Shown here one piece after another: positions 39,595 through 61,197 of a stretch of 64,000 nucleotides of DNA. Under the pieces are notes generated by a model, which saw only the letters and a program-made list of their open reading frames with translations, was not told where the DNA came from and did no database searches. Numbering within the stretch: the first letter of the stretch is position 1; each line of letters opens with the position of its first letter. Source of the stretch: a virus. The stretch is taken from IMG/VR virus record IMGVR_UViG_3300034418_012737, positions 15,955 to 79,954 of that record; one strand, written 5' to 3'. A program made the position numbers and the translations under genes.

Positions 39595-39599
39595 AATTG

Positions 39600-39834: not shown

Positions 39835-39840
39835 AGAAAT

Positions 39841-39917: not shown

Positions 39918-39937
39918 TGCATTCGCCTCACACGCTG

Positions 39938-40010
39938 TGATCCCGGTCGGGCTTGAACCGACGACCCTTCCCTTAAAAGGGGAATGCTCTACCAGCTGAG
40001 CTACGGGATC
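39938..40010 (-). tRNA. tRNA-Lys(UUU)
   Basis: Anticodon arm TTCCC-CTTTTAA-GGGAA. Confidence 0.95.
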
Positions 40011-40013
40011 AAT

Positions 40014-40362: not shown

Positions 40363-40363
40363 G

Positions 40364-40437
40364 TAGGAACGGCAGGAATCGAACCTGCGACCTCCAAGAT
40401 ATAAGCTTGATGCTCTAACCAATTGAGCTACGTTCCC
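40364..40437 (-). tRNA. tRNA-Ile(UAU)
   Basis: Anticodon arm TCAAG-CTTATAT-CTTGG; discriminator A73. Confidence 0.9.
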
Positions 40438-40511
40438 ATATTGGTGCGTCATTTTATTACGCAGTGACGTCATCAGCGAATGCTATTTATTTCAGTATGT
40501 AAAGAACCTAG

Positions 40512-40585
40512 TACTCCCTACAGGAGTCGAACCTGTGACCCACAGCTTAGAAGGCTGTTGCTCTATCCAGCTGAGCTAAGGGAGC
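40512..40585 (-). tRNA. tRNA-Arg(UCU)
   Basis: Anticodon arm ACAGC-CTTCTAA-GCTGT; A20 in the D-loop. Confidence 0.95.
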
Positions 40586-40593
40586 ATATTTTG

Positions 40594-40678
40594 TAGCGCT
40601 GGGGGGACTCGAACCCCCACGGACCTACGGTCCAACAGATTTTAAGTCTGTCGTGTCTACCACTTCCACCACAGCGCC
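40594..40678 (-). tRNA. tRNA-Leu(UAA)
   Basis: Anticodon arm ACAGA-CTTAAAA-TCTGT; long variable arm. Confidence 0.95.
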
Positions 40679-42570: not shown

Positions 42571-43278
42571 TTACGCTTTTTCATACTTAAAGTATTTTAT
42601 AGTAAAATTACTAAGTGGTATTTCTGAATAGGGCATATCTTGTGTGACATGGTTGTTTATTACAACATTCATTTTAGTATTATTTACCTGTTTCATTACA
42701 ACTGGGTCACTTACTACACGGACTAATCTGTCATTGTAATAAAACTTTAATGAGTCTAAGCTCCAATTTAATTTGTACTTTAAGAAGTGTTTTGTGGGAT
42801 CTTTAAAGCCCATAAAATGACTTTTAGGTCCCCACATTTTATTTTTACCCCCTTCAGAGTAGTGCACATTTGTATCTATATGCCTACAAGCCCAAGGTTT
42901 GTTCCAATTAAACCTATGATAATTTGGTTTTTTATGAGAATAACCTTCAAATATATCAATTTCAGGGGGCCAACTGTCCCAACTCCACATCCAAAAAGCA
43001 GGCCATAAGTTCTTACCATATGGTAATTTAGCTTTTATTTCAAATATGCCAGGACCAAATTCAGTAGCACATGATACCAAACCTACACCTACTTTAGGTC
43101 TAATTCCTAATTCTTTAAATTCCTTAGGATTATATTGGGTTTTTAAATTTAAGTAGTTTTTTAATGTAATTTCAACAGCACTAGGATCATACCAACAATA
43201 AGGCTTATCCTTGTGTACCTGTCCCCACCTTTCTTGGGTTAACCATTTATATCCTGACCATTCTATTATTTTACTCAT
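42571..43278 (-). CDS. Glycoside hydrolase family 16
   Basis: LWPAFWM...WPPEIDIFE catalytic motif. Confidence 0.88.
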   Translation of the reverse strand: MSKIIEWSGYKWLTQERWGQVHKDKPYCWYDPSAVEITLKNYLNLKTQYNPKEFKELGIRPKVGVGLVSCATEFGPGIFEIKAKLPYGKNLWPAFWMWSWDSWPPEIDIFEGYSHKKPNYHRFNWNKPWACRHIDTNVHYSEGGKNKMWGPKSHFMGFKDPTKHFLKYKLNWSLDSLKFYYNDRLVRVVSDPVVMKQVNNTKMNVVINNHVTQDMPYSEIPLSNFTIKYFKYEKA

Positions 43279-43901
43279 ATCCTTGATATCAAGTCTAGTT
43301 CATCTTTATCTTCTAAACCTAGTTCTTTTAAGCGTTGGAGGTGGTAATCATCAATTTCCCAATTTACTTGACCTTCATTAACTGGTTTGTATTCCTCCAT
43401 TGTTTGGATCTGTTTGTCACTAAATATGTCCCCAACTGTTAAAAAGTAACAATTATAACAAAGGAGTTCTACGTTATCTAATTTATAGTTTTTTTTATTA
43501 TCGTCTTTAAAGTTCATTATTAATGGAACTTTGTAATCTAATACCCTGCGTTCATTAAATGAGCAATTTGAACAACAATCCTCTAAATAACCCTCTCCTA
43601 TCATTCTCTCACGAATTTTAGCAGCAGAAAAATGAGAACTATCAACTCTACCTTCTATAATGTCTAATACAGCAGGTTGTTTTACACTACCATTTAAAAA
43701 CTTAGGTATACCTTTACCTGCTTGATTTTTATGTTGTTCAAATAGGTCTGGGTAGCCTTCTTCAGTGGCCTCATAGTTTTTAGCCCATTTTTTGTAGTGA
43801 ATGTAGGAAACACCTAAGTAACGAGCAGCTGCACGATTAGACATAGTCTTATTCATAGCTGCTTGTATCTGTTGTTTACTTAGGGGTTTTGCCTTGGGCA
43901 T
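43275..43901 (-). CDS. HTH plus HNH-like zinc-binding protein
   Basis: AAARYLGVSY..YKK HTH; CSNC...N..LDN...LCYNC. Confidence 0.65.
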   Translation of the reverse strand: MPKAKPLSKQQIQAAMNKTMSNRAAARYLGVSYIHYKKWAKNYEATEEGYPDLFEQHKNQAGKGIPKFLNGSVKQPAVLDIIEGRVDSSHFSAAKIRERMIGEGYLEDCCSNCSFNERRVLDYKVPLIMNFKDDNKKNYKLDNVELLCYNCYFLTVGDIFSDKQIQTMEEYKPVNEGQVNWEIDDYHLQRLKELGLEDKDELDLISRI

Positions 43902-44628: not shown

Positions 44629-45540
44629 TTACAAATAAACTAACTCATTTTGATACTCTTGTAAGGAATTAACTGTAATTTTTAAGTTACCCAATTCAAA
44701 AGTACCTAATTGATTGTTATCTTTAATTATATCATTTAATTGTTGAATATAAGTGTAATCTTCTTGGGTAAAATTATTTCCATCTACCTCAACAACAATA
44801 TCTTCTCCCTCATTAAACCATATACCTAATGTATTTTTAAGTTGGGTGGTGAAATTATTTAAGATTAGTTTTTTCTTATACACTACATTATAGTGTGATT
44901 TTCTAAAACCCCACTTTTTAATAAAGTTAATATTAGATTCTTGTTCTACACTTTGATAGTTACCTACTCTAGAAGTTTTACTTACAAAATGGTATACTTG
45001 AGCAGGGGAAACTACTTTTTTAAACCCTCCTATTTTATACCTTAGATGTAAATCATCATCTTCACAAAACATTTTAAATGTATCACCATCTAATTTTATA
45101 TAATCTTCTTTTAAACACCCAAAAAATATTTGAGAGCCCCCTTCAGTTGTATTTTCAGATACAGGATAATCTAAAAACTTTTGGTGATTATAGGATTTTA
45201 AATCGGTTCCACAGTCTAAAATTTCTTTCCCAGGATAAGTGTCTAAGTATATAGGGGGTTCTACCCTTGTGTAAGATACAATAGTATTTTTTTGAATAGC
45301 TTTATCCATTAGTTCTACAAACCCAGGTTTAAGAACCATATCATTATGGAGAAGGATAATTTTATCTCCCTTAGCACGAGCTACAGCATTATTATAATTT
45401 TCACTTAATGTAACTTGATTATTTAGTTCTAAAATTATTTCTACTTCATTTTTATTAGGGTAAATTTCCCTAATATTATTTAGCAAGTACTTAGTATATT
45501 CAGAGTTTGTTTTATTAGTAGGTATAACAAGGGAAATCAT
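44629..45540 (-). CDS. Glycosyltransferase family 2
   Basis: ISLVIP, LHNDM, EDDDL..R and YHFVS. Confidence 0.85.
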   Translation of the reverse strand: MISLVIPTNKTNSEYTKYLLNNIREIYPNKNEVEIILELNNQVTLSENYNNAVARAKGDKIILLHNDMVLKPGFVELMDKAIQKNTIVSYTRVEPPIYLDTYPGKEILDCGTDLKSYNHQKFLDYPVSENTTEGGSQIFFGCLKEDYIKLDGDTFKMFCEDDDLHLRYKIGGFKKVVSPAQVYHFVSKTSRVGNYQSVEQESNINFIKKWGFRKSHYNVVYKKKLILNNFTTQLKNTLGIWFNEGEDIVVEVDGNNFTQEDYTYIQQLNDIIKDNNQLGTFELGNLKITVNSLQEYQNELVYL

Positions 45541-46334
45541 ATGTAATTTTCTTTAAATTTACTCCAAAAATCAGGCACAACATTTGTATAAGCTAATGTT
45601 GTGGACCCTAAGTGGAAAATAATTCCTTTATTAAGGAAATCAAAGGATTTATAATTATTTATAAAATCTTGATCAGTATTATATAAATAAGGAACTTGAC
45701 AATTAAAATCTTTTGGTAAAACCGTTAATTCTTCACCAAATAACTCTTGTATGGTTAAATTAATAGCAGTTTGGTCCATAGCATCTAATCTTATCCCTCC
45801 CTGTTTTCCTATACCTTCTACGTGACAATTTATATCTTTTTCTTGGTAATAAAACTCTTTATAAAATTTTATTTTGTCTTGGAGGAGAGTTAAATGTTTT
45901 GGTTTTAAAGTAACAAATCCTGCATTAAAATAAGTTTTTATATAAGGTACTACTTCTGGGAAGTAGGGAACCCACTGGTTTAGGTGGTAATTAGCTACGC
46001 TATTTCCTCCTTGGTCTGGGATAACTCCAACTTCAACATTGTGGTTTTCTAATACCTCTATAAAATTATAAGCATCCCATCTGATTATAGTATCACCATC
46101 AACAAAAGTAAGACGTTCATAATCTCCATAAGAAGGAACTTCAACCCACCTGTCAAAACACATAGCGGCATAATCATTTTCAACATTTTTATAAGATTTA
46201 TGTCCTGTTAAAATGATTAAATCTATATTATATTTTTTACAATAAAATTTCCAAGTTTCTAAACAAATCTCATAGTTAGGGTGACCAAATAATCCATTGT
46301 ATCCTGGGATTATTATGGCATTTTTGCTTTTCAT
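45537..46334 (-). CDS. Glycosyltransferase, GT8/GT34-like
   Basis: FVDGD, YFNAG, DQT.IN and FH. Confidence 0.75.
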   Translation of the reverse strand: MKSKNAIIIPGYNGLFGHPNYEICLETWKFYCKKYNIDLIILTGHKSYKNVENDYAAMCFDRWVEVPSYGDYERLTFVDGDTIIRWDAYNFIEVLENHNVEVGVIPDQGGNSVANYHLNQWVPYFPEVVPYIKTYFNAGFVTLKPKHLTLLQDKIKFYKEFYYQEKDINCHVEGIGKQGGIRLDAMDQTAINLTIQELFGEELTVLPKDFNCQVPYLYNTDQDFINNYKSFDFLNKGIIFHLGSTTLAYTNVVPDFWSKFKENYI

Positions 46335-47257
46335 GTTATAATATTTTTAGATTTTAGGGTGTTAAGATGAGTTTCAATATAGCTACGCATATTAGATTCA
46401 AAATGATGTCTTTGATTAGGAATATTATTTAACACTAAAAAATCTTTATAGTACTTATTAAAACCATCTACCTCAGATGTAGCTAGGGGGCCAGAAGGAT
46501 ACATCCATATTGTTTCTCCTCTAAGAAGATATTGTTGAAAATCTACTCCTAAAGGTTTAACATTTTCTGTTATAATCATAGAATACCAATCCCAAGGTCC
46601 ATACCCTTTCCAATTTTCTTGAAAAGGACATAATTCTTCATAAAATTTTTTGCTATATAAATCAAACCACCCCGCCCATTTACTTTTTTTAGTAGGGTAT
46701 AATTTTATTTCTTCAGAAGAATGTTTATTACTATACCAAACATCGAAAGTATCAACTTTTAGGTAATCATTATAAGATATATCTACAAACTTAGGATCTG
46801 TTATTTCATCCCAAGCACTATCTCCTACTTTTGATATTTGGGGAGTAAGGACAAAATATTCATTTTTAATTTCCTTAGCAGATTCTATTAAATAGTATAA
46901 AAGATGTTCACTAAACAGCATATCAGGGCATACTGACATGTAATAATCTACTTCAGAGGAAATGCATTCCCTTTGTAAATTTAAATGCCCATACAACTCA
47001 TCTCCTTCATATATTTTTTTGATATGGTTGTATTTTTCTAATAAAAGAGATATTTGATTATATTTTTCAATAAAAAATTCTTTAGGTAGCTTACTTTTTT
47101 CCCAATTAATAATATAAGAGGATAAATTAAGACAAGTTTCTATTGTTATATTATCTTCATCTGAAAGATAATAGTGGGATTTTTTAAGTTGGGAAAAAGC
47201 TAATAAGGCATAATCCATTTCCCATGGCATTAAATGACATATAATTTTTATATTCAT
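46331..47257 (-). CDS. Glycosyltransferase, GT-A-like
   Basis: CPDM and WKGYGPWD. Confidence 0.6.
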   Translation of the reverse strand: MNIKIICHLMPWEMDYALLAFSQLKKSHYYLSDEDNITIETCLNLSSYIINWEKSKLPKEFFIEKYNQISLLLEKYNHIKKIYEGDELYGHLNLQRECISSEVDYYMSVCPDMLFSEHLLYYLIESAKEIKNEYFVLTPQISKVGDSAWDEITDPKFVDISYNDYLKVDTFDVWYSNKHSSEEIKLYPTKKSKWAGWFDLYSKKFYEELCPFQENWKGYGPWDWYSMIITENVKPLGVDFQQYLLRGETIWMYPSGPLATSEVDGFNKYYKDFLVLNNIPNQRHHFESNMRSYIETHLNTLKSKNIIT

Positions 47258-48024
47258 TTTAATTTACTATAAACTTCTTTAATGCCTTGTTCTAATCCTA
47301 TGTAATCTATTCCTAAATTAGTAAATGTACCTGAATATGAAGGAAAATCTCCTATCCATTCTTGTCTTATTCTCCGTCTAGAGCCTCCTTGGTCACTAAT
47401 TAAAGAGGCTATTTGGGTTAAAAATAAAGACTTATTATAAGTGCAATCAATAATTTTAGGGGGATTATCATTTTTTATGTAAAAGTTAACTAATTTAATT
47501 AAATCTTTCATATAAAAAAAATCCATTTTCTTTTCGGCAAACACATATAAATCTTCTCCATTTAAATAACGTTTTATATTAGATTTAATAAACCTAGTAT
47601 CTAACTCATTTTCATCAAAAACGGCAAATATTCTAATATTATAGAAATTATCCTCAATATTACAAATATCTTTTATAATTTTTTTACTTAAACCATAAGG
47701 AGTAGTAGGTTGTCCTAACTCAGCACCAGATCCAAATTGGATTAATTTACTAAAATGGAATTTATTATAATATAAATTATAAAACATTTGAAGATTTTGA
47801 TAAAAAACCTCCCCAGTATCAGGTTTAAGACGGCTCCCTCCTTTAATAGCCGTATGGATAACTACATCAAAATATTTATCAGTAAACCACTTATCAGTAG
47901 CTTCTTTATCTGTAAGGTCAAAATCCTCTCTTGTAACACAAGTTATATCATAAGGAAATAAGCTCAGGCCTTTTTCAAGGCTCTGAGCTATGTATCCATT
48001 TCCTCCTGTAATGAGAATTTTCAT
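47254..48024 (-). CDS. NAD-dependent epimerase/reductase (extended SDR)
   Basis: ILITGGNGYIA, GSGAE and YGLSK. Confidence 0.85.
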   Translation of the reverse strand: MKILITGGNGYIAQSLEKGLSLFPYDITCVTREDFDLTDKEATDKWFTDKYFDVVIHTAIKGGSRLKPDTGEVFYQNLQMFYNLYYNKFHFSKLIQFGSGAELGQPTTPYGLSKKIIKDICNIEDNFYNIRIFAVFDENELDTRFIKSNIKRYLNGEDLYVFAEKKMDFFYMKDLIKLVNFYIKNDNPPKIIDCTYNKSLFLTQIASLISDQGGSRRRIRQEWIGDFPSYSGTFTNLGIDYIGLEQGIKEVYSKLK

Positions 48025-48959
48025 TATCTTTTAATAGGACTGTCTGTTTTAGTAATAGGGGTTACACTATGGTTTTGATTATTATAATAATCAGTATCTT
48101 TTTCGTACTTCCATTTGTTATCTCCTAATAGTTTTTCTAATTCATCATCTTTAATTTCATAAAAATTTTCTGGGGTGGGGAATTGTCCTCCTCTAACTTC
48201 AGAAGCATATTGTTTAAGTGAATCTTGAATAAGTTGTCCTGCTTCACAGTATCTTTTTACAAATTTAGATTTAAATTCCCAAAATAGACCTGTTAAATCA
48301 TGGAAAATAACTAACTGACCATCAACTTTATCGCCCGCTCCAATTCCATAAACTGGGATGTCAAGTTCTTTAGCGATCATTTCAGCGGGTTCTTTAGGCA
48401 TTGCTTCTAAAAGAAGAGCTGAACATCCTGCTTCTTGGAGGGCTAAAGCTTGTTTAAGTACAACTTCAGCTTGTGCCGCTGTTTTTCCTTGTACCCTATA
48501 ACCTCCTAATTTGGCTCTAGTATGAGGGGTTAAACCTAAATGACTCATAACCATAATTCCAGAATCACATATAGCTTTAATTCTTTCAATCATAGCTCCC
48601 TCTACTTTTACCATATCCATCCCCGCTTTAATAAAACGGCCTGCGTTTTCTACGGCACTTTCATTAGAAATTTGATATGACATATAGGGCATATCTCCAA
48701 TTAAAAGAGCATTACTTGCCCCCCTTGAAACAGCTTCACATGAACGAATCATGTCATCCATAGTAACAGGAATAGTCGTTTTGTGACCTAAAGTAGTCAT
48801 ACCTAAAGAATCTCCTACTAAAATACAATCTACACCCGCCCCATCAGCAATATGGGCTTGAGGGTAATCATAAGCAGTTACAAGTACAGTTTTAGTACCT
48901 TCTCTTTTTTGTTTTCTTAGTTTAAGAATAGTTGTTTTTGTTTTGCTATCTGCAGCCAT
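48024..48959 (-). CDS. panB: 3-methyl-2-oxobutanoate hydroxymethyltransferase family protein
   Basis: TAYD, LVGDSLG, GDMP..SY, VKVEG, HLGLTP, GIGAG..DGQ..V.HD and KFVKRY. Confidence 0.92.
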   Translation of the reverse strand: MAADSKTKTTILKLRKQKREGTKTVLVTAYDYPQAHIADGAGVDCILVGDSLGMTTLGHKTTIPVTMDDMIRSCEAVSRGASNALLIGDMPYMSYQISNESAVENAGRFIKAGMDMVKVEGAMIERIKAICDSGIMVMSHLGLTPHTRAKLGGYRVQGKTAAQAEVVLKQALALQEAGCSALLLEAMPKEPAEMIAKELDIPVYGIGAGDKVDGQLVIFHDLTGLFWEFKSKFVKRYCEAGQLIQDSLKQYASEVRGGQFPTPENFYEIKDDELEKLLGDNKWKYEKDTDYYNNQNHSVTPITKTDSPIKR

Positions 48960-48978
48960 TTTTTATAAATTTTAATTT

Positions 48979-50766
48979 TTATTTTTTTAATGTTACCCAC
49001 CCTTGTGAGTTATCCCTTCTAGGGATCATATCAATAATCATGTTTTTTTTAATTTGTTCATCCGTGAGATAGGGAGACATATCTTCTAAAGGGTTACCAA
49101 ATTCTAACTTAGGGGTTAATTTTTGTTCTCTATCAATTATAACGTTTACTAATATACTACCAGGTTCTTGGAGAGCCAACCTAATTATTTCTTTATAATT
49201 AGCTTTTGTAGCGTGTACTGCTTTAATCCCATAAACCTTAGCTAACTCAACAAAATCTGGGGTCGAATAGTCTTGGGTTTCTGTTGCTATATATCTTGAA
49301 TTAAAATATGAATCTTGAAATTGTTTAATTATCCCATAACAATCATTATTCATTATAAAAATTTTAAGGGGTAAGTTATAATGTTTTACAGTTTGTAGTT
49401 CCTGTAAATTCATTTGGAAACCTCCATCACCATCTATACAAATAACGGGATCATTGCTTCCTATTGTAGCTCCAATTGCTGATGGGAGTCCATAACCCAT
49501 AGAGGAATTACCAAAATTAGAAAACATTCTTTGGTTTTCTTTAGGAGTTATAGATTGCATAGACCACACTAAGTGTCCCCCCTCATCAGGAATAACAGTA
49601 CAAGTTTCAGGGAGTTGATTATTAAGTTCTTCTAAAAATTCATAAGAAGTAAGAATATCTGACTTTAAAGGTCTGTTTTCTAGGTTTACAGATTTATACT
49701 TATTAGCCCAATTTGTAAATTGAGAATTAGGGCTAGAATCAATCCATAAATTTAAAAATCTTTTAGCATCACAAATAATAGGTAAATCAATCTGTAGTCC
49801 TCTGTCTTTGCTTACTTCATTACCATCAATATCTACCATAACTTTATAAGATTCCCTAGAGAATGTTTTTAAATCCCCTCCAGTTTGTCTAGTATCTAAT
49901 CTAGACCCTATAGAAATAAGCAAATCACAATTTTGTATAGCAAAATTACCTTTTCTACTACCATACACACCTATATCTCCTATAAATTGAGGATGATCAT
50001 GTGACATTATATCAAATCCACCCCAAGACACTACAAAAGGTAGTTTAGTATTTTCTACTAAAGTCTTTACTTCATCTATTGCCCCCCCTAATCTAATACC
50101 ATGTCCCAATAGTAATAAAGGACGTTTGCTATCTTTTATCTTTTCATTAAGAAGAATTATTTGATCTTGAATAAACTTATCACTAACTATATTAAAATCC
50201 TTTTTTTCCCATTTATCTGTAGTTTTTTCTATTAGTGAGTTTTGTATATCTACAGGGAAATCCAATAAAACCGGACCAGGTCTACCTGTGGTTGCTGCTA
50301 CATAAGCTTGTTCTATTTTAGATTTAATACTTTTTAAATCATTTAAAATGGTAGCATACTTAGTAAAATGTTTAAAAGATTCCACTACAGGAGTTTCTTG
50401 GAATCCAACTTGTCTAGGAGTTGTAGAGACTGAGTTGATTGTTTCATAAGTACTAACTTGGCCTGTTATAAAAATACAAGGAATGGATTCATACCAACAT
50501 CCACAAATCCCATTTAATAAATTTTGAGCACCAGGGCCACTAGTACTTAAAACTGCTGCTATTTTCCCAGAAGTTCTATAATAACCTTCAGCAGCCATAG
50601 CAGCGGATTGTTCATGTTGGAAACAATAGTACTTTACATTAGGTTTCCTTCCTATATAATCTACAGTTGGAACTATAGCCCCTCCTGTAACAAGGAAAAA
50701 GGTATCAACCCCATTATCTACCAAAGTATCTATTAAATATTCTAATACTTTTACTTTCATCACCAA
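48979..50766 (-). CDS. ThDP-dependent acetolactate-synthase-like enzyme (YerE-type context)
   Basis: HEQSAAMAAEGY, TSGPG..N, GRPGPV, SMGYGLP and GDGGFQMN.QEL...NN. Confidence 0.88.
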   Translation of the reverse strand: MVMKVKVLEYLIDTLVDNGVDTFFLVTGGAIVPTVDYIGRKPNVKYYCFQHEQSAAMAAEGYYRTSGKIAAVLSTSGPGAQNLLNGICGCWYESIPCIFITGQVSTYETINSVSTTPRQVGFQETPVVESFKHFTKYATILNDLKSIKSKIEQAYVAATTGRPGPVLLDFPVDIQNSLIEKTTDKWEKKDFNIVSDKFIQDQIILLNEKIKDSKRPLLLLGHGIRLGGAIDEVKTLVENTKLPFVVSWGGFDIMSHDHPQFIGDIGVYGSRKGNFAIQNCDLLISIGSRLDTRQTGGDLKTFSRESYKVMVDIDGNEVSKDRGLQIDLPIICDAKRFLNLWIDSSPNSQFTNWANKYKSVNLENRPLKSDILTSYEFLEELNNQLPETCTVIPDEGGHLVWSMQSITPKENQRMFSNFGNSSMGYGLPSAIGATIGSNDPVICIDGDGGFQMNLQELQTVKHYNLPLKIFIMNNDCYGIIKQFQDSYFNSRYIATETQDYSTPDFVELAKVYGIKAVHATKANYKEIIRLALQEPGSILVNVIIDREQKLTPKLEFGNPLEDMSPYLTDEQIKKNMIIDMIPRRDNSQGWVTLKK

Positions 50767-51707
50767 ATAAATCTATTTTTATAATATCTTATTATATTAG
50801 GAAGTTCATTGTCAAATTGTTTTTGAGGTTCCCATCCTAATTTTCTTAGTTTTGAGTCATCTAAAGCATACCTAACATCTTGACCTTTCCTACTAAAAGA
50901 TACATCAATGTATGAAGAATAATTTACTTCTTCAAGATATTCTTTAATTATTTTTTTAACAGTTACAATATTTTCTTGCTCAAACCCACCTGCTATGTTA
51001 TAGATTTCATTAGTAATACCCGATTCAATTATAGTAATAATAGCATTAGCTGTGTCTTGAGCATGCAGCCAATTTCTAATAGGTGTTCCGTTATTATGTA
51101 AAGGAATTTGTTTACCTAAGTGTAGATATTTACATGATTTAGGTATAAGTTTTTCAACATATTGTCCTATTCCGTAATTGTTAGTAGGTCTAACAACAAC
51201 ATAAGGTAAATTATATGTTCTAGCCCAAGCTAATACTAACTGGTCAGCTGCTGCTTTAGTAGCTGAGTAGGGATTACTAGGGTGGAGTAAATCTGTTTCA
51301 GTGTGGGCACCCTTCTCTATATCCCCATATACTTCATCAGTGCTAAAGTGTAAGAATATAGGTTTACCAGAATTTTCTCCTCTGTGATTTCTAATAAGTT
51401 CTAAAAGGTTATGAACTCCATTAATATTAGAGTGAACAAAATCATCACTATTAGCTATACTATTTCCAACATGGGTTTCAGCTGCTGTGTTAATTACATA
51501 ATCACAATCATATAAAAACTTTAAATCATTTATATCACAATGAACAAATGAAAAATTAGGGTATTGTTTAAATTCGTTTAAAAGATGTTTATTGGCGGCA
51601 TAGGTTATTTTATCTACACCTTTAACATACCAACCCTTATCTAAACAAGTTCGGGTTACATAAGAACCTATAAAGCCTAAACAACCTGTTACGTATACTA
51701 CTTTCAT
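50760..51707 (-). CDS. rmlB: dTDP/NDP-glucose 4,6-dehydratase (RmlB-like)
   Basis: TG..GFIGS, AAETHV, STDEVYGD, PSNPYSATKA, NNYG..Q..EKLIP and GQD.RY. Confidence 0.85.
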   Translation of the reverse strand: MKVVYVTGCLGFIGSYVTRTCLDKGWYVKGVDKITYAANKHLLNEFKQYPNFSFVHCDINDLKFLYDCDYVINTAAETHVGNSIANSDDFVHSNINGVHNLLELIRNHRGENSGKPIFLHFSTDEVYGDIEKGAHTETDLLHPSNPYSATKAAADQLVLAWARTYNLPYVVVRPTNNYGIGQYVEKLIPKSCKYLHLGKQIPLHNNGTPIRNWLHAQDTANAIITIIESGITNEIYNIAGGFEQENIVTVKKIIKEYLEEVNYSSYIDVSFSRKGQDVRYALDDSKLRKLGWEPQKQFDNELPNIIRYYKNRFIW

Positions 51708-52631
51708 TTAAAATTTACAATTACATTTTTCTGTAAGAAACTGTTTAGTTTCATTATTAAACCACATGGTTTTTATTTCATTTAAAGTTTCATTATACTC
51801 TTCTTTAGTTTTTACTCCAAGGGCTTCGGCATAGTGAAAAACTTTAATTTGTTTGTTATCTTTTGTAAAAAGTTTATTATCTTTTACATAATATTCCGAA
51901 GTAGGGTAAACATCTCCTATTGGGGTACTGTTAGGATCTTTATAATTACCACTGTATAACTTTCCTTTGTGCATTTGGTTTCCTCCACTTGCGGAACCTT
52001 TAGACCTAACATTGTATAATGTTTGAGTTTTTATATAAGGAAAATCTACTATACTTACTTTAATGTTTAATTCCTTCTGGTTGATGTAACAATAGTTTAG
52101 GCCCCCCTGTTCAGCATGATCTGTCCAATATTTTATAGAGTTTTCATACACAGTTTCTGCTCCTTTTAAACTATTAAAGCAAGTTACATCAGCATTAATA
52201 AAAGAAACATCCCTGTAGGTGTTTCCTTGAAATGAAAACTCTTCTATTAAAGGGGACCAATATTTAGTTTTCATAAAAGCATAAGGGGGACCAGCTGAGC
52301 ATATCACATCATCAGTGGTGTTATTTATAAATTCATTTAAATAACCACAAGTAAAAGTATCTGCACCAAGCATTATTATTTTATCATAATGCTTTTTTTT
52401 CATAAACTCTTTTATTAAGTGAACTCTAAATATACCTAAATGGTCATAATATTCCTTAATATCTAATTCTTTTAAGTAGTCATCAAGCGTATTATTATTT
52501 ACATATAGCAAATCTACATCAGGATGGTGTACCTTAAAACTATTTATAGCATTGGGAGTAAAAAAAGTATCCCCTTTAAAGTTTTTATCTTTATTGTTAG
52601 AAATACTAAGTATTAAACAACCTACTTTCAT
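51708..52631 (-). CDS. Glycosyltransferase-like protein
   Basis: LGAD, INAD, EQ..LN and FHYA; sugar cluster context. Confidence 0.55.
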   Translation of the reverse strand: MKVGCLILSISNNKDKNFKGDTFFTPNAINSFKVHHPDVDLLYVNNNTLDDYLKELDIKEYYDHLGIFRVHLIKEFMKKKHYDKIIMLGADTFTCGYLNEFINNTTDDVICSAGPPYAFMKTKYWSPLIEEFSFQGNTYRDVSFINADVTCFNSLKGAETVYENSIKYWTDHAEQGGLNYCYINQKELNIKVSIVDFPYIKTQTLYNVRSKGSASGGNQMHKGKLYSGNYKDPNSTPIGDVYPTSEYYVKDNKLFTKDNKQIKVFHYAEALGVKTKEEYNETLNEIKTMWFNNETKQFLTEKCNCKF

Positions 52632-53770
52632 TTATTAAAAAACTCTTTTATTTTATTACAAACATAATCTACATCTTCAAGAGTCATCCCGTGGTGTGCC
52701 CCTAATAAAAACCCATTTTTCATAATAAGATCAGAATTAGTAAAAGGTTGAAGATATTCTCTATACACAGGGTGACGTGTAACATTCCCTGCAAATGTTA
52801 CTCTGGTTTGGATGTTGTTGTCTTCTAGAAAATGAAGAAGTTCAAATCTTTTTTCAGATTGTAGAGGAATAGCTAACCAATTAGGCTTAATACTATCATC
52901 TGGGAGGATTAAGTCTCCTACCCCTTGTAGATTTTCTATATAACGTTCAATATTATTTCGTCGAATTTTAAAGAATTTTTTAAACCTTTCAAGTTGAACT
53001 AAACCAAATGCTGCTTGCATTTCAGTAGATTTCATATTGTATCCTAAAACTCCATATAAAAATTTATAATCATAAGGAATACCATCAACATTATAATTAA
53101 ATCTATCTGACATATCTTCTGAGTTGTCACCTATCCTACCCCAATCTCTAAATTGTAGACAAATATTACGAAGTTTTTCATCATTAAACATTACCATCCC
53201 CCCGGCACCACCAGCTGTGATCACATGAGAAGCATAAAAACTAGTAGTAGCTATATCAGTTTCGGGGGTGTAAGTTACAGTATCAGCAGAATCTTCTATT
53301 AAAATAATATCTTCTCTATTTATTTCAGCTAAACCCTTTTTAAGAGCTTCCCAATTTGGTTTATTACCAATAAGATTGGGAATCATAAAAGCTTTAACAT
53401 CATCATCTACAACAGATAACACCTCTTCTACGTTAGCACAGTAGGTTGTCAAATCTACATCAACAAACACAGGAATTAATCCCAACTGGATAATTGGGGC
53501 TAAAGTTGTAGAAAAAGTACAAGCGGGGGTAACTACTTTTGTTCCTTTTGGTAATTGAAGGCTGGCAAGCGCTAACAAACATGCAGCAGAACCTGAGTTC
53601 ACAAACACCCCATATTTTTTACCAAATTGTTTTGCTATTTTTTCTTCAAATTCTACAGTACGAGGGCCAAATCCTGCAAGCCACCCGTCTTTTAAACATT
53701 CTTCTACAGCTTTAATTTCTTCTTCCCCATATGCTTCAAATTTATTGGGGGCATACCATACTTTTTTCAT
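52628..53770 (-). CDS. RfbH/DdhC-like NDP-4-keto-6-deoxyhexose 3-dehydratase (DegT family)
   Basis: VNSGS.A, PNLIGN, IEDSAD, SFYASH.IT (His at the usual Lys position), RDWGR and GYN.K. Confidence 0.8.
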   Translation of the reverse strand: MKKVWYAPNKFEAYGEEEIKAVEECLKDGWLAGFGPRTVEFEEKIAKQFGKKYGVFVNSGSAACLLALASLQLPKGTKVVTPACTFSTTLAPIIQLGLIPVFVDVDLTTYCANVEEVLSVVDDDVKAFMIPNLIGNKPNWEALKKGLAEINREDIILIEDSADTVTYTPETDIATTSFYASHVITAGGAGGMVMFNDEKLRNICLQFRDWGRIGDNSEDMSDRFNYNVDGIPYDYKFLYGVLGYNMKSTEMQAAFGLVQLERFKKFFKIRRNNIERYIENLQGVGDLILPDDSIKPNWLAIPLQSEKRFELLHFLEDNNIQTRVTFAGNVTRHPVYREYLQPFTNSDLIMKNGFLLGAHHGMTLEDVDYVCNKIKEFFNK

Positions 53771-53791
53771 GTCTTTGAGTATATTAAAAAT

Positions 53792-54856
53792 TTAGTAAGA
53801 TTCCAAGCTAAGTAGTACTTCAATTACACTATCTATATCTTGTAATTTCCAAGGTAAATTATTTTTATCAACTAAATTAGGATCTAATTCTCCTACACAT
53901 TCCCCCCCTCCATTTAAAGCAAATAAAGGGGCCCCAGAATACGAAGAAAAAGTTTTTAATTTTTGATTAAACCAATTTTCCATTTTAGGATGAGAAAGAA
54001 TTATATTATTATTTTCTTTTCCTGAAAAAATAATTCCTACAGCTGATGCGCTACTTTGTTGGATTATATTTGAATAAGATTTAAATATTTGTATTTTTTG
54101 GATTATATCATAATCCATTAATTCTATTATATCATATTTTAACTTATTTTGTATTTGTTCAATAAGTTCAATTTCATTAAGTAATTCCCTTTTATGATGC
54201 CATCCCCTTTTTATAGTGTCTTGCCTAGATATATAACACCCTTTAGAAGAGGTTTTTATAGGGGGAACTTTACTGGCTATTTCTTGTATTTTGCTTAAAA
54301 CTAAATCATCCCCTATAGGTTCAGGAAAACAATACTGAACATTAGGTATAATTAAATTGCTTATCTTATATCTAAGATGTTTTTTAAATACTATAACATC
54401 TATATTTTTGTCTTTAAGGTAAAGATCTAACCACTGTTTTATAAAGCTACTATTTCCTTTGTCTTGATAAAAATCTTCGGGTATACCTAAAACTATATCA
54501 GGGATATTTAGTTGTTCAAAATATAAAATCTTACTAAATAAGTTGAAAAAAAAATGGGCGTAGTTTAATCCTGCAGAATCATAGAACAAAAATATATTTT
54601 TATCAATAATTTCATCGTACGAAGTATCACTATTAGATACTTTACTATAAATTAAACTATGATCCCCCTTCCTTTGGGCGTCTGTATTGTCAATATCTAA
54701 TTCTAAGTTATTGTGGTAGATTTCTAACCATCCTCTACCTATTCCTTTTACCATTTCAAAGTCCTTATGTTTTAAATAAGCATCTTTAAAAGATAAACAA
54801 TAATGTCTATGGGGAAAAATTTTACTAGAAAGGGGAGTTGGGAGTACTTTGTACAT
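53792..54856 (-). CDS. Glycosyltransferase family 61-like
   Basis: NYAHFF, YISR...R.L.NE and QKIQIF. Confidence 0.7.
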   Translation of the reverse strand: MYKVLPTPLSSKIFPHRHYCLSFKDAYLKHKDFEMVKGIGRGWLEIYHNNLELDIDNTDAQRKGDHSLIYSKVSNSDTSYDEIIDKNIFLFYDSAGLNYAHFFFNLFSKILYFEQLNIPDIVLGIPEDFYQDKGNSSFIKQWLDLYLKDKNIDVIVFKKHLRYKISNLIIPNVQYCFPEPIGDDLVLSKIQEIASKVPPIKTSSKGCYISRQDTIKRGWHHKRELLNEIELIEQIQNKLKYDIIELMDYDIIQKIQIFKSYSNIIQQSSASAVGIIFSGKENNNIILSHPKMENWFNQKLKTFSSYSGAPLFALNGGGECVGELDPNLVDKNNLPWKLQDIDSVIEVLLSLESY

Positions 54857-56709
54857 TATATTAAATTTTCTATTAGTTTAAAGTATTTAGTAAATTTAGC
54901 AGAAGATTCTTCATGTAAAGGAAGTAAAGAAAATAATAAGCTAGCAGTAATAAGTTTTATATATTTGTTTTCTTCAGGGGTAAATTGGTTTTCAAAACAT
55001 TGTATAAAATCCCTAGTATACACATTATCTATTTCTATATCATTAAGAATAAAATCATATCCAATTAAAGACTGATAGATTTTAGCATAATCATAAAATA
55101 TATCTCCTTTTAAGCTAGGGGTTTCTCCTAACATCCCCCTCATATCTACAAATTTAATACTGTTTTTAGTTTTTATAATGTTAGTAAAAACAGGATCACC
55201 ATGAATTATACCAGGAACAGCAGTAGTGTAATTACTAAGTTTATCTTTTAAAACATCAAAAATAAGTTTTGATCCTAAAAATTTATTATATAATTCTATA
55301 TTATTATTGTATCTAGATATTAATTTAGGTACATAATTAGAATATATATCTCCTTGTTCCTCTACATGGGTCTTGCTTGTATGAATTTGGGCCATACTAT
55401 CTAATAGTGTATAAAAGGAATTCAGGGTTAAAGTTTTAGTAGTATACAAATATGAAAAACTTACCCCTTCTATATTCTCCATAGAAACAACATTATTTTT
55501 AATACTATTTACTTTGGGAAAATGAGGTTTTATTACTTCAGGAATATTTTTATACCAGTATAATTCCCCTGGGTTAGAAGTGGTTTTAACTACTGTATCT
55601 CCTTTATATTGGACTTCATTAAAGCTTCTAGAAGGGGTTAAAGTGTCAAAAATACCTATTCTTTGTTGGGGATTAATATAGGGATTAACTGCTAAATCAT
55701 CTATGTAAAAATTAGCATAGGGTTTACCAAAATAAATTTCATCGTAGGGTATACCAAATTTATCTAAAGTCTCAAATGTAACTTTAGATATATCTGCTAC
55801 TACCTTACCTACATTACCATGATGGGTTCTCATTCTTCGGGCAGTATAAATAATAATAGTATGCCCTAAATCCTTTAAAAATTTAAGTAATTTAATATTA
55901 CTTACTAAAGGTTCTACACTAGAATAATCCCCTTTTATTTTAGGATAACTAACTAAAGTATTATCTAAATCAAAACAAATTCTAAATTTTTCTGCAAGGG
56001 TTTTATTCCTAGTACAAAATATTTGGAGTTGGAGGGGGGTTCCCACACAATGAAAATCCTTAATACATTGCCCCACAATTTTAATATTATCTTTGAGCAT
56101 TTCTTTATAAACGTAAGAAGTATACAATTCACTACGTAAAGATAATATTTTTTCTATATAATTTTTTAATAAAGTCCCCGACTCAAAACCATAAGCTCCG
56201 GTGTTAGCATAATCCGATATTTTATTTTTTTCTTCTATACAAGTAACTGTGTTATTTTCTAGTCCTATATATGAAAATAAAGGTTCAGGTGAAGTATCTT
56301 TAAAATAAAAAATACAATTTTTATTTTTAGACTGTCTGTAATTTGATATTATATCTTCTTTGTAGAAAGTATCACAATCTAAAAGAAGAAACTCATTATC
56401 TAATTCTTTAATAGAAAGTTCATTTAGCCCTTTTAGTACAGTTTCAGCAGCACCTTTAGTTACTGAGGATAAGGGAATAAAGTTAATGTTTTTATCAGGG
56501 AAGTAAAAGTTTAGAAGGGATTTAAAGTTAAACTCTTCTAATTGGTTATTGTATACAATATGAAGAGTATCATCTTCATTAAGAGTTAGATTTTCAATAA
56601 CCCTACAAATCATAGGTTTTCCTAAAACATTAATTAAAGGTTTAGGATATAAAAATCCTTCATCTTTAAATCGTTGCCCGACCCCTCCTATTGGAATTAT
56701 TATATTCAT
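54856..56709 (-). CDS. Fusion: NTP transferase + HAD phosphatase (EcbF/BcbF-like) + APH/choline-kinase-like domain
   Basis: IIPIGG.GQRF...PKPLI; FDLDNTL..YTAR..FGKP..YIDD; HGDP..N..D.RG..YD.AK. Confidence 0.8.
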   Translation of the reverse strand: MNIIIPIGGVGQRFKDEGFLYPKPLINVLGKPMICRVIENLTLNEDDTLHIVYNNQLEEFNFKSLLNFYFPDKNINFIPLSSVTKGAAETVLKGLNELSIKELDNEFLLLDCDTFYKEDIISNYRQSKNKNCIFYFKDTSPEPLFSYIGLENNTVTCIEEKNKISDYANTGAYGFESGTLLKNYIEKILSLRSELYTSYVYKEMLKDNIKIVGQCIKDFHCVGTPLQLQIFCTRNKTLAEKFRICFDLDNTLVSYPKIKGDYSSVEPLVSNIKLLKFLKDLGHTIIIYTARRMRTHHGNVGKVVADISKVTFETLDKFGIPYDEIYFGKPYANFYIDDLAVNPYINPQQRIGIFDTLTPSRSFNEVQYKGDTVVKTTSNPGELYWYKNIPEVIKPHFPKVNSIKNNVVSMENIEGVSFSYLYTTKTLTLNSFYTLLDSMAQIHTSKTHVEEQGDIYSNYVPKLISRYNNNIELYNKFLGSKLIFDVLKDKLSNYTTAVPGIIHGDPVFTNIIKTKNSIKFVDMRGMLGETPSLKGDIFYDYAKIYQSLIGYDFILNDIEIDNVYTRDFIQCFENQFTPEENKYIKLITASLLFSLLPLHEESSAKFTKYFKLIENLI

Positions 56710-57332
56710 AATGTTTCATATAAAGCATTTTGTGCCTCTTGTCTTTCAATAGTTTTTGGGTGATGAAGGCAAAATTCATCATTAGCAGGAAGATGAGCAT
56801 AATCTTTATGACCTGTTAATACTTCATGTACTTTATTTTTCCATTTAATTCTTTTAACATTTTTAAGAATACGACATTGATAGTCAGGAAAATTAACTCT
56901 ATTTTTATTATTCATAACCCACCCCCATCTCTTAATATGTTCACTAGTTAGGCCTTCTACTAAATTAATACGAGGAACCCAAATAATATCTACTTTATTA
57001 TTACCTTCTATAATAGTAGGTAACATACTCATTAAATACTCTTCAGGATACTCATCAGCATCAATTTGAAAAATATAATCTCCTGTGCAATGGTTTTTTA
57101 GATTATTTTTAAAAGCGGCAAAATTACCATTTAAAGGGAATTCAACATGTGTGTAGGGCATGTTAAATTCAGCATATCCCTTTAATACTTCATAAACTGC
57201 CTGAGTGGTATTACCTTTATCACATTGTACTACAATTTCGTCTTCAGGTCTTTTGTGTTTAAATAAATAATCTAAAAGGCGTTTTAACTCTTCATGCTCA
57301 TTATGTACAGGTATAGCGTAACTTATTTTCAT
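56706..57332 (-). CDS. Glycosyltransferase family 2 (start likely MKISYAI)
   Basis: ISYAIPVHNE, QIDADE, PDYQ.R and VHE. Confidence 0.85.
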   Translation of the reverse strand: MKISYAIPVHNEHEELKRLLDYLFKHKRPEDEIVVQCDKGNTTQAVYEVLKGYAEFNMPYTHVEFPLNGNFAAFKNNLKNHCTGDYIFQIDADEYPEEYLMSMLPTIIEGNNKVDIIWVPRINLVEGLTSEHIKRWGWVMNNKNRVNFPDYQCRILKNVKRIKWKNKVHEVLTGHKDYAHLPANDEFCLHHPKTIERQEAQNALYETL

Positions 57333-57333
57333 T

Positions 57334-57798
57334 TTATTCTTTTTCAAACATCCCAATATAATCAAGAGCTTCTATAAAATCCCGTTCTTCAAAATGTTTT
57401 AAACTTTTCATATCCATCTTATTTTCATAAAATTCTCCAGAAGAACCTGGGATTGGGAAATTTTTTCTTTCTTCTTCAAGGATAGAAACAGATTTTATAG
57501 CAGCCCATTTCCAATCTTTTGTGCTAGTTCCATCTATATAAACCATACCTTTACTATTTAAATTTAATGTAGAGGGAATCCAATAATTTTTTTGATCATC
57601 CTGGTATGCTAAATCTTTATATAATTCTGGAAGTACTTCTAGTTGTTCTTCTAAGAATTCACTATCTTGTTTCATTAAAGTGTTTGTAGTAAATCCACAT
57701 CCATAACACATATAAACTTTATAGTCTGCTCCTAAATTATTTACATAACAAGCATCACTTTGACATCTATTACATATTGTTAACTCATCATTATTCAT
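57334..57798 (-). CDS. Zinc-ribbon hypothetical protein
   Basis: CxxC..C and CYGCG. Confidence 0.6.
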   Translation of the reverse strand: MNNDELTICNRCQSDACYVNNLGADYKVYMCYGCGFTTNTLMKQDSEFLEEQLEVLPELYKDLAYQDDQKNYWIPSTLNLNSKGMVYIDGTSTKDWKWAAIKSVSILEEERKNFPIPGSSGEFYENKMDMKSLKHFEERDFIEALDYIGMFEKE

Positions 57799-59102
57799 TG
57801 TGTTACTTTTTTAAGTTTAGGTAATTTAGGAGTATCAATTTTTTTAACTTTAGATAAATCTAATTCTACTTGTTTAGGAAAATTAGGAACATATTTACTT
57901 AAATAAGAATTAAGCTGTTCTACCATTTTAGCATAACTAAACTCAGTTTTTGATTTATTAGCTTGTTTAACAGCTTTTTCCTTATAATTTTTATAATTTA
58001 CATATACATCTTTCATAGCTACAGAAGCAGCCTCAGCATCTACACCAAACCATTGAAATTCCTCCATAATAATATTGGTAGACATTGCACTTTTATCAAC
58101 TTTATGTAATTCACCAGGTAATAATACAGAGTATTCTGATGAAAGGAAATCGGTATGTCCTGACCAATTTGTAGTAATAACTGGTTTTTTGGTAAGACTA
58201 AATTCAAGCATAGGTCTTCCAAAACCTTCACCTTTTGTTAAGCTAATTAAAGCTTTTACTTTTTTATGAGTATAAAGATGACTTATTTCTTCATCAGTAT
58301 AATCTCCATGTATTAAATATATATTAGGTAAAGTTTTAGCATTAGGGATACTATTACGGATAATATCTATTTTTTCTAAAATAGTTTGCCTATCTATTGC
58401 AGAGGCCCCACCTCCACTAGTTTTTAATATTAAAGCAGGAGTTTGTTTTTTATTTTTAAATGTTTCTAAGAAAATTTGAATCATATACCCAACATTTTTT
58501 CTATCATGACCTATATTCCCTTGCATCCAGTGTCCCATAAACAAATAAGCAAAATCTTCTTTTACTAAATCTAAATTAAAGTTAGAGACTTTAGGCTGGT
58601 ATAGAGAGGTATCAGCTCCTTCTATTAATACTTCTACAGGTTTTTTAATTTTAAGAGTTCCAGTTGGGGCATTAGTAGCTTTATCTACTTGTTGGAATTC
58701 TATTGCTTTAAGCACATTTGCACTATGTGTAGAAGAAGTTAATACTAAGTCCATTTTATTACATCCTTGAATCCAAGTGTGATGAACTCCAGTTGTTTCT
58801 ATTCCTGCAGTTAATCCTATATTAAATTTACCTACATTTTGGAATTCATTAGGAATTGTAATTTGGCACCACAATTCAGGTTGACGAGGGAGTTTATTAC
58901 CCATAGGTAATAAATGGGGAGTTAAAAACTGCCATTTTTTATGATCTCTTATAAATCCCCAAGGAGTTTCACCCCATCTTTGTGGGAGGATTTTTACATC
59001 ATATTTATCTGTTTCAATTAGGGCTTTAACAAAGTCCCTAGATCTAGCTCCATACCCACTATAAGTGTCTATGGGACAGCTTACTATAAATAAAGGTTTC
59101 AT
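57795..59102 (-). CDS. Glycosyltransferase family 4 (GT-B)
   Basis: SGYG..SR, RKNV and GEGFGRP.LEF...PVI.T.WSG. Confidence 0.85.
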   Translation of the reverse strand: MKPLFIVSCPIDTYSGYGARSRDFVKALIETDKYDVKILPQRWGETPWGFIRDHKKWQFLTPHLLPMGNKLPRQPELWCQITIPNEFQNVGKFNIGLTAGIETTGVHHTWIQGCNKMDLVLTSSTHSANVLKAIEFQQVDKATNAPTGTLKIKKPVEVLIEGADTSLYQPKVSNFNLDLVKEDFAYLFMGHWMQGNIGHDRKNVGYMIQIFLETFKNKKQTPALILKTSGGGASAIDRQTILEKIDIIRNSIPNAKTLPNIYLIHGDYTDEEISHLYTHKKVKALISLTKGEGFGRPMLEFSLTKKPVITTNWSGHTDFLSSEYSVLLPGELHKVDKSAMSTNIIMEEFQWFGVDAEAASVAMKDVYVNYKNYKEKAVKQANKSKTEFSYAKMVEQLNSYLSKYVPNFPKQVELDLSKVKKIDTPKLPKLKKVTQ

Positions 59103-61194: not shown

Positions 61195-61197
61195 TTT

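Follow-up and report, generated by a model that had tools for sequence, protein, structure and literature searches.

The virus stretch analysed here, 64,000 nt of record IMGVR_UViG_3300034418_012737 (hereafter the window, whose coordinates are used throughout), carries a glycan gene island at 44629-60553. Within it, a gene for PanB, a protein of the ketopantoate hydroxymethyltransferase (KPHMT) family, directly adjoins a gene for a carboligase dependent on thiamine diphosphate (ThDP). The open reading frames (ORFs) were analysed by profile searches (Pfam, NCBIfam) and by comparison with the Protein Data Bank (PDB). Every ORF of the island is on the minus strand, and neighbouring genes overlap by up to 4 nt or stand at most 21 nt apart. 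The source record is 80 kb long, with an estimated completeness of 47%. A sequence-only reading of the stretch had named six genes at 47254-53770, flanked by glycosyltransferases (GTs). All six are present, intact, co-directional and closely packed at those positions, and GT profiles match on each flank, but the extent was drawn too narrowly: the island continues in both directions, and a fusion gene at 54856-56709 also belongs to the set. The central genes are the following:

54856-56709, minus strand: fusion protein of 617 amino acids (aa), comprising a sugar-1-phosphate nucleotidyltransferase, a HAD-IIIA phosphatase and a kinase-like C-terminus
52628-53770, minus strand: predicted nucleoside diphosphate (NDP)-4-keto-6-deoxysugar 3-dehydratase dependent on pyridoxamine or pyridoxal phosphate (PMP/PLP), E1/RfbH-like, 380 aa (PF01041, 4e-72)
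51708-52631, minus strand: 307-aa protein, possibly a GT-A-type glycosyltransferase (no Pfam or NCBIfam match)
50760-51707, minus strand: RmlB-like NDP-hexose 4,6-dehydratase, 315 aa (TIGR01181, PF16363, PF01370)
48979-50760, minus strand: ThDP-dependent carboligase resembling YerE and acetohydroxyacid synthase (AHAS), presumed branching enzyme (PF02776, PF00205, PF02775)
48024-48959, minus strand: PanB, 311 aa, presumed maker of a gamma-hydroxy-2-oxo-acid donor
47254-48024, minus strand: extended short-chain dehydrogenase/reductase (SDR), 256 aa, presumed YerF-like reductase of the branch carbonyl (PF01370, 2e-18; GGNGYIA and YGLSK)

The 3-dehydratase exhibits the motif SFYASH, in which a histidine aligned with that of E1 replaces the PLP lysine. 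The sequence-only reading had described it as RfbH/DdhC-like and had pointed out this residue. The histidine and the likeness to E1 and RfbH hold, but the best family, RfbH (NF011936), was matched with 270 bits and its cut-off of 423 was not reached, and the cysteines that bind the [2Fe-2S] cluster in E1 are missing, the E1 stretch CyCapgCdntC corresponding to IGDNSEDMSD. The PDB matches were led by E1 (3bcx) with 218 bits, followed by ColD with 139-141 bits. As its sequence is nearer to E1 than to ColD, the enzyme can be placed as a distinct Fe-S-less branch of the E1 lineage. Members of the same subfamily were seen in 8 loci of phages and 33 of giant viruses, and the cysteines are likewise missing from all 8 of the phage proteins and from those of the giant viruses; the 436-aa dehydratase type of 46 other phage loci has kept the E1 cysteine motif. 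No E3-type (ferredoxin-reductase) partner was detected with Pfam among the 20 island ORFs scanned. Because the ligands of the Fe-S cluster are missing, the window enzyme probably works in the manner of ColD, without a separate reductase.

The top match of the 4,6-dehydratase is TIGR01181 (306.7 bits, under the cut-off of 365.1), the models of the cytidine diphosphate (CDP) and guanosine diphosphate (GDP) types scoring far lower, and homologues with 63-79% identity occupy the same position in 36 related loci. The protein at 51708-52631 had been called GT-like by the sequence-only reading; no Pfam family matches it, and what speaks for the name are its language-model neighbours, which include GT8 and Nucleotid_trans viral clusters and point to GT8/GT-A (the AlphaFold2 model, with a mean confidence, pLDDT, of 37, was unusable). 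The SDR exhibits the GxxGxxG and YxxxK motifs, its start overlaps the stop of PanB, and an SDR follows PanB in most related loci. The fusion protein was assigned from PF00483 (residues 4-188), the capsule phosphatase model TIGR01689 (residues 243-343) and an HGDxxxxN kinase motif recognized by reading. Since NDP-heptose activation likewise involves a kinase, a phosphatase and a nucleotidyltransferase, the sugar that it is presumed to activate might be a heptose instead of a hexose. This fusion was found in only one other related locus (L023).

PanB scored 286.4 bits against TIGR00222 (cut-off 207.55) and 334 bits against PF02548 (6e-100). When it is aligned with the E. coli enzyme (1m3u), the residues D45, S46, D84, K112, E114, H136 and E181 are all identical, and none of the D, K, H and E columns checked varies among 85 PanBs of phages and 23-24 of giant viruses. 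In the same alignment I202 is kept and I212 is replaced by leucine; I202 is a pocket isoleucine that can be engineered for a wider substrate range (PMC7611260). The phage PanBs group as a clade whose support is 100/100 and whose stem measures 0.83. The giant-virus PanBs are their sister group (FastTree, 0.93), and a Chloroflexi PanB and two other sequences from metagenome-assembled genomes (MAGs) branch next. At sites invariant in 73 cellular sequences, the phage enzymes exhibit the changes G135S, Q142H and E171Q and a proline-to-serine change at window residue 231. These are no signature of a role in sugar synthesis, because the giant-virus and bacterial partners lack them, and a universal sequence signature of sugar-linked PanBs was rejected. 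As exceptions among the phage changes, leucine-to-valine at window residue 217 recurs in both the giant-virus and the bacterial partners, and serine-to-threonine at residue 147 recurs in the giant-virus PanBs alone. The phage PanBs also have a C-terminal extension, conserved and about 45 residues long, past the canonical domain (48024-48160 on the minus strand, residues ~268-311 of the window protein), and their median length is 310 aa, versus 290 aa in the cellular set. PanB and phosphoenolpyruvate (PEP) mutase belong to one superfamily; a PEP mutase/phosphonopyruvate decarboxylase pair was ruled out by the decisive PanB profile scores and by the three-domain structure of the ThDP enzyme. The sequence-only reading had reported panC, panD and panE as absent from the window. 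We found neither panC (PF02569), panD (PF02261) nor panE/ApbA (PF02558) in the whole 80-kb record or in four related virus records, two of which are 90-100% complete, while the controls were positive; ilvC and ilvD were not found in these records either.

The ORF of the ThDP enzyme was called at 48979-50766, but ATG 50760 is the probable start, because the database copies are 593 aa long, as is the protein that begins there. The cofactor motif GDG...N is present and reads IDGDGGFQMN. Against PDB sequences, the enzyme scored 312 bits with JanthE (8rph), 281 with PpYerE (5ahk) and at most 264 with plant AHAS; JanthE and PpYerE are characterised YerE-like enzymes (PMC12188165, PMC12247030). Its top NCBIfam matches are acetolactate synthases, but it stays under every AHAS equivalog cut-off (388 versus 538 bits). 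The enzyme therefore likely belongs to the YerE-like subclass. Related genes make up more than 120 clusters (90% identity) labelled 'acetolactate synthase' in marine viral metagenomes. Nine longer metagenome relatives are fused to cupin, radical S-adenosylmethionine (SAM)/SPASM, GNAT, HAD or SASA (sialate-esterase-like) domains; in five fused relatives the addition is an N-terminal region of 250 aa, which matches cupin in two cases. These fusions, among them P0139, P0157, P0170, P0185, P0188, P0204, P0208 and P0230, point to a tailoring of sugars and small molecules and not to valine synthesis.

To survey the association of the two genes, viral contigs were scanned for matches to the window PanB. 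Among 115 matches, the best 80 (71-85% identity) were combined with the window to give 81 loci, in which the ORFs within 9 kb of PanB were clustered. A three-domain ThDP gene directly adjoins PanB in 79 of the 81 loci, with a median gap of 2 nt. The neighbour of PanB is a ThDP enzyme of the window's type (type A) in 15 loci, of type B in 46, of type C in 16 and of a fourth type in 2; the rest are one cut ThDP copy and one contig edge. Between types A, B and C the identity is only about 35%; JanthE is the top-scoring structure for each, and PpYerE comes second for types A and C, above true AHAS. As the types are mixed within PanB subclades, the pairing has been kept through repeated exchange of partners or swapping of modules. 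Of the 15 type-A loci, 14 also encode a His-type 3-dehydratase, and so do 44 of the 46 type-B loci; the enzyme is either of the Fe-S-less form (8 loci) or of the 436-aa form with the E1 cysteine motif. Type-C loci exhibit a ColD-like enzyme or none, usually together with a B12-radical SAM enzyme.

The control set comprised the 80 best PanB matches in bacterial and archaeal contigs, with one genome per species. No ThDP gene lies within 8 kb of any of the 75 housekeeping PanB genes (at most 58% identity), whereas all five PanBs of at least 59% identity have a ThDP neighbour. Three of these five (L088, L089, L090) lie on MAG contigs filed as Pelagibacter and 'uncultured bacterium' and on a single-cell contig filed as Prochlorococcus, with PanBs of the phage clade (73-80% identity); these contigs are probably phage DNA that was captured in cells or binned together with them, and could hint at hosts. 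The order on a Chloroflexi contig is ThDP enzyme, PanB, ColD-like dehydratase, SDR, NUDIX, B12-radical SAM enzyme and methyltransferase. On an Oligoflexia contig it is B12-radical SAM enzyme, PanB, type-C ThDP enzyme, SDR, nucleotidyltransferase and GHMP kinase, and this pair sits amid plain chromosomal genes (GidB, RNase H, SLT). In the reverse direction, JanthE-like queries against 401 Pseudomonadota and 401 Chloroflexota genomes gave 25 bacterial JanthE/YerE-like loci, many with DegT and SDR genes and none with PanB within 8 kb. The pairing of PanB with the ThDP enzyme is thus specific, mostly viral and rare in bacteria, and it is restricted to sugar islands. A B12-binding radical SAM enzyme was also seen beside PanB and the type-C ThDP enzyme in L022, L024 and L056 and in both bacterial examples (L092, 6014-7528; L275, 5057-6559), where it might methylate the donor or the branch. 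We found no literature linking panB with yerE, or viruses with yersiniose-type pathways.

In a scan with the window ThDP enzyme, the type-A phages were followed by about 40 contigs with 46-50% identity, including GVMAG records and one record of 196 kb. Three searchable giant-virus records contain 5-8 paralogs of the capsid protein of nucleocytoplasmic large DNA viruses (NCLDV), as in prasinoviruses. The giant-virus loci encode the Fe-S-less dehydratase (64-66% identity, motif SFYASHV) together with an SDR and a 4,6-dehydratase. In 24 of them a PanB with 51-57% identity directly adjoins the ThDP gene, and about one third have no PanB. The dehydratase identity between the phage lineage and these prasinovirus-like viruses (L176-L211) is unusually close for viruses that infect different domains of life.

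Taken together, these neighbourhoods lead us to propose, with moderate confidence, that an acyl-branched deoxysugar is made and transferred by the products of the island, with the PanB product as the donor of the ThDP enzyme. The fusion protein would activate a sugar to an NDP-sugar, which the RmlB-like enzyme would convert into a 4-keto-6-deoxy intermediate. The His-type dehydratase would then strip off the C3 hydroxyl, probably like ColD and with no separate reductase. In parallel, PanB would hydroxymethylate a 2-oxo acid of the host, most likely 3-methyl-2-oxobutanoate, to give ketopantoate. The YerE-like ThDP enzyme would decarboxylate this donor and add the resulting acyl anion to the 4-keto group of the sugar, the SDR would reduce the side-chain carbonyl, and the neighbouring glycosyltransferases would put the sugar into a glycan. 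Every chemical step is one that we infer, as we do the donor, the acceptor, the nucleotide and the glycan target, be it the virion, the host surface or another; the particular 2-oxo acid, the action of PanB before or after branching, the C4 position of the branch and a 3,6-dideoxy acceptor are to be read in the same conditional sense.

Ketopantoate is 4-hydroxy-3,3-dimethyl-2-oxobutanoate, thus a gamma-hydroxy-2-oxo acid of the PanB type, and it is a low-flux metabolite. If it were needed in bulk as a building block of the sugar, the virus would gain from a PanB of its own, while YerE systems that use pyruvate need no such helper. Steitz and co-workers showed that longer acyl-branched sugars are encoded by clusters in which the genes for CDP-4-keto-3,6-dideoxyglucose stand together with those for a YerE-like enzyme, for a reductase and for an aldolase that forms a gamma-hydroxy-2-oxo acid as donor, and that ErwE takes 4-hydroxy-2-oxobutanoate but rejects pyruvate (PMC9306805). 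The acceptor employed with ErwE was dihydro-2H-pyran-3(4H)-one. KPHMTs, the E. coli enzyme included, make 3-substituted 4-hydroxy-2-oxo acids from many 2-oxo acids (PMC7611260). All four roles of the 'unifying scheme' (keto-deoxysugar genes, YerE-like enzyme, reductase and donor enzyme) are filled by adjacent genes in the window, with PanB for the aldolase, and by this analogy the PanB product fits the role of a dedicated donor.

The same gene set and the same pairing would fit equally well if the ThDP enzyme added an acetyl group from pyruvate, as YerE does, and PanB then hydroxymethylated the alpha-hydroxy-ketone side chain on the NDP-sugar before reduction by the SDR. The PanB-less giant-virus loci, which keep a near-identical ThDP enzyme, would be expected if pyruvate were the donor throughout and PanB only decorated the branch. 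However, the residues that bind the metal and the 2-oxo acid in 1m3u are all kept in the window PanB. To our knowledge, all PanB chemistry involves a 2-oxo acid that chelates the metal through its carboxylate and keto oxygens, as in the E. coli enzyme. An action of PanB on a nucleotide sugar would be without known precedent. In the published scheme the synthesis of the donor comes first (PMC9306805). Such an extension of the branch is thus quite unlikely. We regard as unlikely, too, that PanB and the ThDP enzyme make a hydroxy-aldehyde or hydroxy-acid, for instance 3-hydroxy-2,2-dimethylpropanal by decarboxylation of ketopantoate, for a substituent not linked through carbon (acetal, ester or amide) or for a use outside glycans. 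The pairing does persist in type-C loci that have no 3-dehydratase, often beside the B12-radical SAM enzyme, and the metagenome fusions of the ThDP enzyme with GNAT, HAD, SASA, cupin and radical-SAM domains speak for varied uses. In the window island, however, no acyl-activating enzyme or acyltransferase was found, and the pair is flanked by a 4,6-dehydratase, a 3-dehydratase and an extended SDR as in yersiniose-type clusters; moreover, the characterised enzymes closest to the ThDP enzyme are ketone-accepting carboligases (PMC12247030).

Least of all do we favour an auxiliary metabolism, in which the ThDP enzyme would be an acetolactate synthase feeding valine and 2-oxoisovalerate, with PanB and the SDR raising pantoate and hence coenzyme A (CoA) in the infected cell; we consider this improbable. 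The PanB score above the equivalog cut-off and the acetolactate synthases at the head of the ThDP matches are in line with it, and the prasinovirus literature reads the genes in this way (PMC5371798, PMC6851583). Yet the ThDP enzyme remains under all acetolactate-synthase cut-offs and scores higher against YerE-like structures, and neither a small regulatory subunit nor ilvC, ilvD, panC, panD or panE was found. Unlike PanE/ApbA, the SDR is an enzyme of the extended, sugar-nucleotide kind, the pair always lies inside NDP-sugar islands beside 3-dehydratases, and housekeeping PanB genes never have a ThDP neighbour (0/75).

Several observations weigh against a PanB-derived branch. The proposal is drawn from comparative genomics, and we know of no natural sugar with a branch derived from ketopantoate. 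PanB looks catalytically canonical from its residues and, being above the equivalog cut-off, bears no sequence mark of a new role. No fusion of PanB with the ThDP enzyme ('Rosetta stone') occurs among the best 150 representatives, and a ThDP tree with four housekeeping synthases neither resolved the deep branches nor set the enzymes cleanly apart from those synthases as an outgroup, which also leaves room for an acetolactate synthase. Eleven of the 16 type-C loci show no 3-dehydratase in their flanks, which means that a 3,6-dideoxysugar is not the acceptor in every case. Finally, the ThDP enzymes of the PanB-less giant-virus loci sit close to, and among, those of the loci with PanB. Because these loci keep a near-identical ThDP enzyme, PanB is an optional add-on and the branching enzyme needs no viral PanB; PanB is dispensable, the donor coming from the host or having changed. 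Three sites of the giant-virus ThDP enzymes track the presence or loss of PanB, namely A30S, Q395I and S421A, the last two falling within active-site loops of the pyrophosphate domain, DxGxH and GxSSMG. These substitutions would fit a change of donor, but they are a lead only, since a single origin of the PanB-less group was not rejected (approximately unbiased test, p = 0.38). The residues were rejected as a general marker of PanB presence for the same p value for a single clade and because the type-B phage enzymes break the rule.

The suggestion of the sequence-only reading that PanB has been repurposed for a branched sugar therefore stands in part. The neighbourhood survey that it called for showed that the set of PanB, ThDP enzyme, dehydratase and reductase recurs in about 80 phage, about 24 giant-virus and two bacterial loci but near none of 75 housekeeping PanBs, and the viral PanBs separated from the housekeeping enzymes as a clade of their own. 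The affinity to JanthE and PpYerE and the precedent of PMC9306805 point the same way, while the canonical nature of PanB and its optional presence in giant viruses do not. What would be new here, the replacement of the donor-forming aldolase by PanB in a YerE-type pathway spread in marine phages and giant algal viruses, is supported by the comparison of sequences. Going further, we suggest, more tentatively, that phages and algal viruses make an undescribed family of branched sugars with a side chain from the PanB product, that the prasinovirus genes cited for 'branched-chain amino-acid' and 'vitamin B5' synthesis are glycan genes, and that the module has moved among T4-type phages, prasinovirus-like viruses and a few bacteria.

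If this is true, both the natural sugar and the biological use of PanB would be new, and one sugar module would be common to viruses of bacteria and of eukaryotes. The marine viral 'acetolactate synthase' genes, which are very common, would have to be re-annotated, and the account of amino-acid synthesis in prasinoviruses revised. It would also mean that there are natural YerE-like enzymes with bulky, functionalised donors, a class sought for the synthesis of chiral tertiary alcohols, and would provide candidate physiological donors for enzymes such as JanthE, whose natural substrates are not known.

The window virus is an Immutovirus-like T4-type phage, its nearest cultured relative being Flavobacterium phage immuto. 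Three relatives that share the island encode the T4-type major capsid protein Gp23, with 60% identity to the capsid of Flavobacterium phage vB_FspM_immuto, and the exonuclease bordering the island is 43.5% identical to the immuto nuclease. No DNA-level matches to known phages were found. A giant-virus origin of the window was ruled out, as the NCLDV capsid was not found in the record and five relatives and Gp23 is present in three relatives; a cyanophage was ruled out likewise, psbA not being found in the record or its relatives. The order exonuclease-GT1-GT1-small protein-GT2 (56706-62348, minus strand) is syntenic with immuto (L223, 14001-19022), where the backbone is followed by another sugar cassette with WecE-like transaminases, a methyltransferase, an acetyltransferase and an epimerase. 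The island therefore consists of a fixed four-gene glycosylation backbone and a swappable sugar cassette. A scan for promoters and terminators gave sites no commoner than in shuffled sequence. The backbone genes and the other genes of the island are:

59102-60553, minus strand: GT1/GT4-type glycosyltransferase, 483 aa, backbone gene 1 (PF00534, 8e-9; homologues after the exonuclease in 28 related loci and in immuto)
57795-59102, minus strand: GT1-type glycosyltransferase, 435 aa, backbone (PF00534; in 30 related loci; syntenic in immuto)
57334-57798, minus strand: small conserved backbone protein, 154 aa (no Pfam match at 0.001; weak Lar-like zinc ribbon, 0.0017; syntenic hypothetical gene in immuto)
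56706-57365, minus strand: GT2 glycosyltransferase, 219 aa, final backbone gene (PF00535, 1.6e-12; syntenic in immuto)
53792-54856, minus strand: GT61-like glycosyltransferase, 354 aa (PF04577, 2e-8)
46331-47257, minus strand: conserved viral protein, 308 aa, possibly a distant glycosyltransferase (no Pfam match; weak GT2 lead)
45537-46334, minus strand: 265-aa protein (no family match; 4-nt overlap with each neighbour)
44629-45540, minus strand: GT2 glycosyltransferase, 303 aa, final island gene (PF00535, 2.7e-6)

Homologues of the protein at 46331-47257 directly follow the SDR in 9 related loci (its AlphaFold2 model, with a pLDDT of 31, was unusable). At the edge of the island, a 208-aa protein (43275-43901, minus strand) gives weak helix-turn-helix and HNH hints and has counterparts in 6 related loci; its gene may be homing-endonuclease-like and lie at a cassette border. 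A GH16 glycoside hydrolase of 235 aa lies close downstream of the island (42571-43278, minus strand); no homologue was found in the 80 related loci, and the enzyme could serve the phage in degrading glucans or polysaccharides. Eight tRNA genes are present at 38551-40678 and 7845-7930, both on the minus strand. Seven are clustered in 2.1 kb (Leu-TAG, Val, Thr, Lys, Ile-TAT, Arg-TCT and Leu-TAA). All of the tRNAs fit codons ending in A or T, which matches the low G+C content of the phage.

With regard to known systems, housekeeping PanB (E. coli 1m3u, EC 2.1.2.11) belongs to the same fold family and exhibits the same metal-binding and catalytic residues, whereas PanBs of the window type form a separate viral clade, have a C-terminal tail and are never found beside panC or panD but always beside a ThDP carboligase in a sugar island. 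ColD, the GDP-4-keto-6-deoxymannose 3-dehydratase, is, like the window dehydratase, a His-type DegT protein of about 380-390 aa with no Fe-S cluster and no reductase partner. The prasinovirus genes (OtV, OlV, MpV) probably correspond to the module carried by the prasinovirus-like contigs, from which the likeness is known here. Among cultured prasinoviruses, OlV7 and OtV-2 are reported to have PanB and OlV1 to lack it. The prasinovirus literature files 'acetolactate synthase' and 'aminotransferase' under amino-acid synthesis and regards ketopantoate hydroxymethyltransferase as a means of boosting CoA (PMC5371798, PMC5454428, PMC6851583); here, these amino-acid and vitamin genes are read as a sugar module.

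The yersiniose A pathway of Yersinia pseudotuberculosis (DdhA/B, E1/E3, YerE, YerF) shares the order of 4,6-dehydration, His-type PMP-dependent C3 deoxygenation, ThDP-dependent branching at the keto carbon and reduction. In contrast to the window with its PanB, YerE uses pyruvate and no donor-forming enzyme is involved. E1 carries a [2Fe-2S] cluster and has an E3 partner, neither of which was seen in the window, and the 4,6-dehydratase is of the CDP-glucose type, whereas that of the window is RmlB-like (70 bits against the CDP model, cut-off 278). A parallel in gene content is provided by the erwiniose, caryophyllose and gastriose clusters (ErwE-ErwF-ErwI/J, MMAR_2331-2333 and MyGE-MygF-MygI; PMC9306805), which share the genes for an NDP-4-keto-deoxysugar, the YerE-like carboligase, the NAD(P)H-dependent reductase and a dedicated metal-dependent enzyme that forms a carbon-carbon bond to supply a gamma-hydroxy-2-oxo-acid donor. 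That enzyme is a pyruvate aldolase in these clusters and, in the window, PanB, with the hydroxymethyl group coming from methylene-tetrahydrofolate; the window dehydratase, moreover, is without an Fe-S cluster. The erwiniose-type clusters belong to bacterial O-antigen and lipooligosaccharide loci, whereas the module described here is carried by phages and giant algal viruses.

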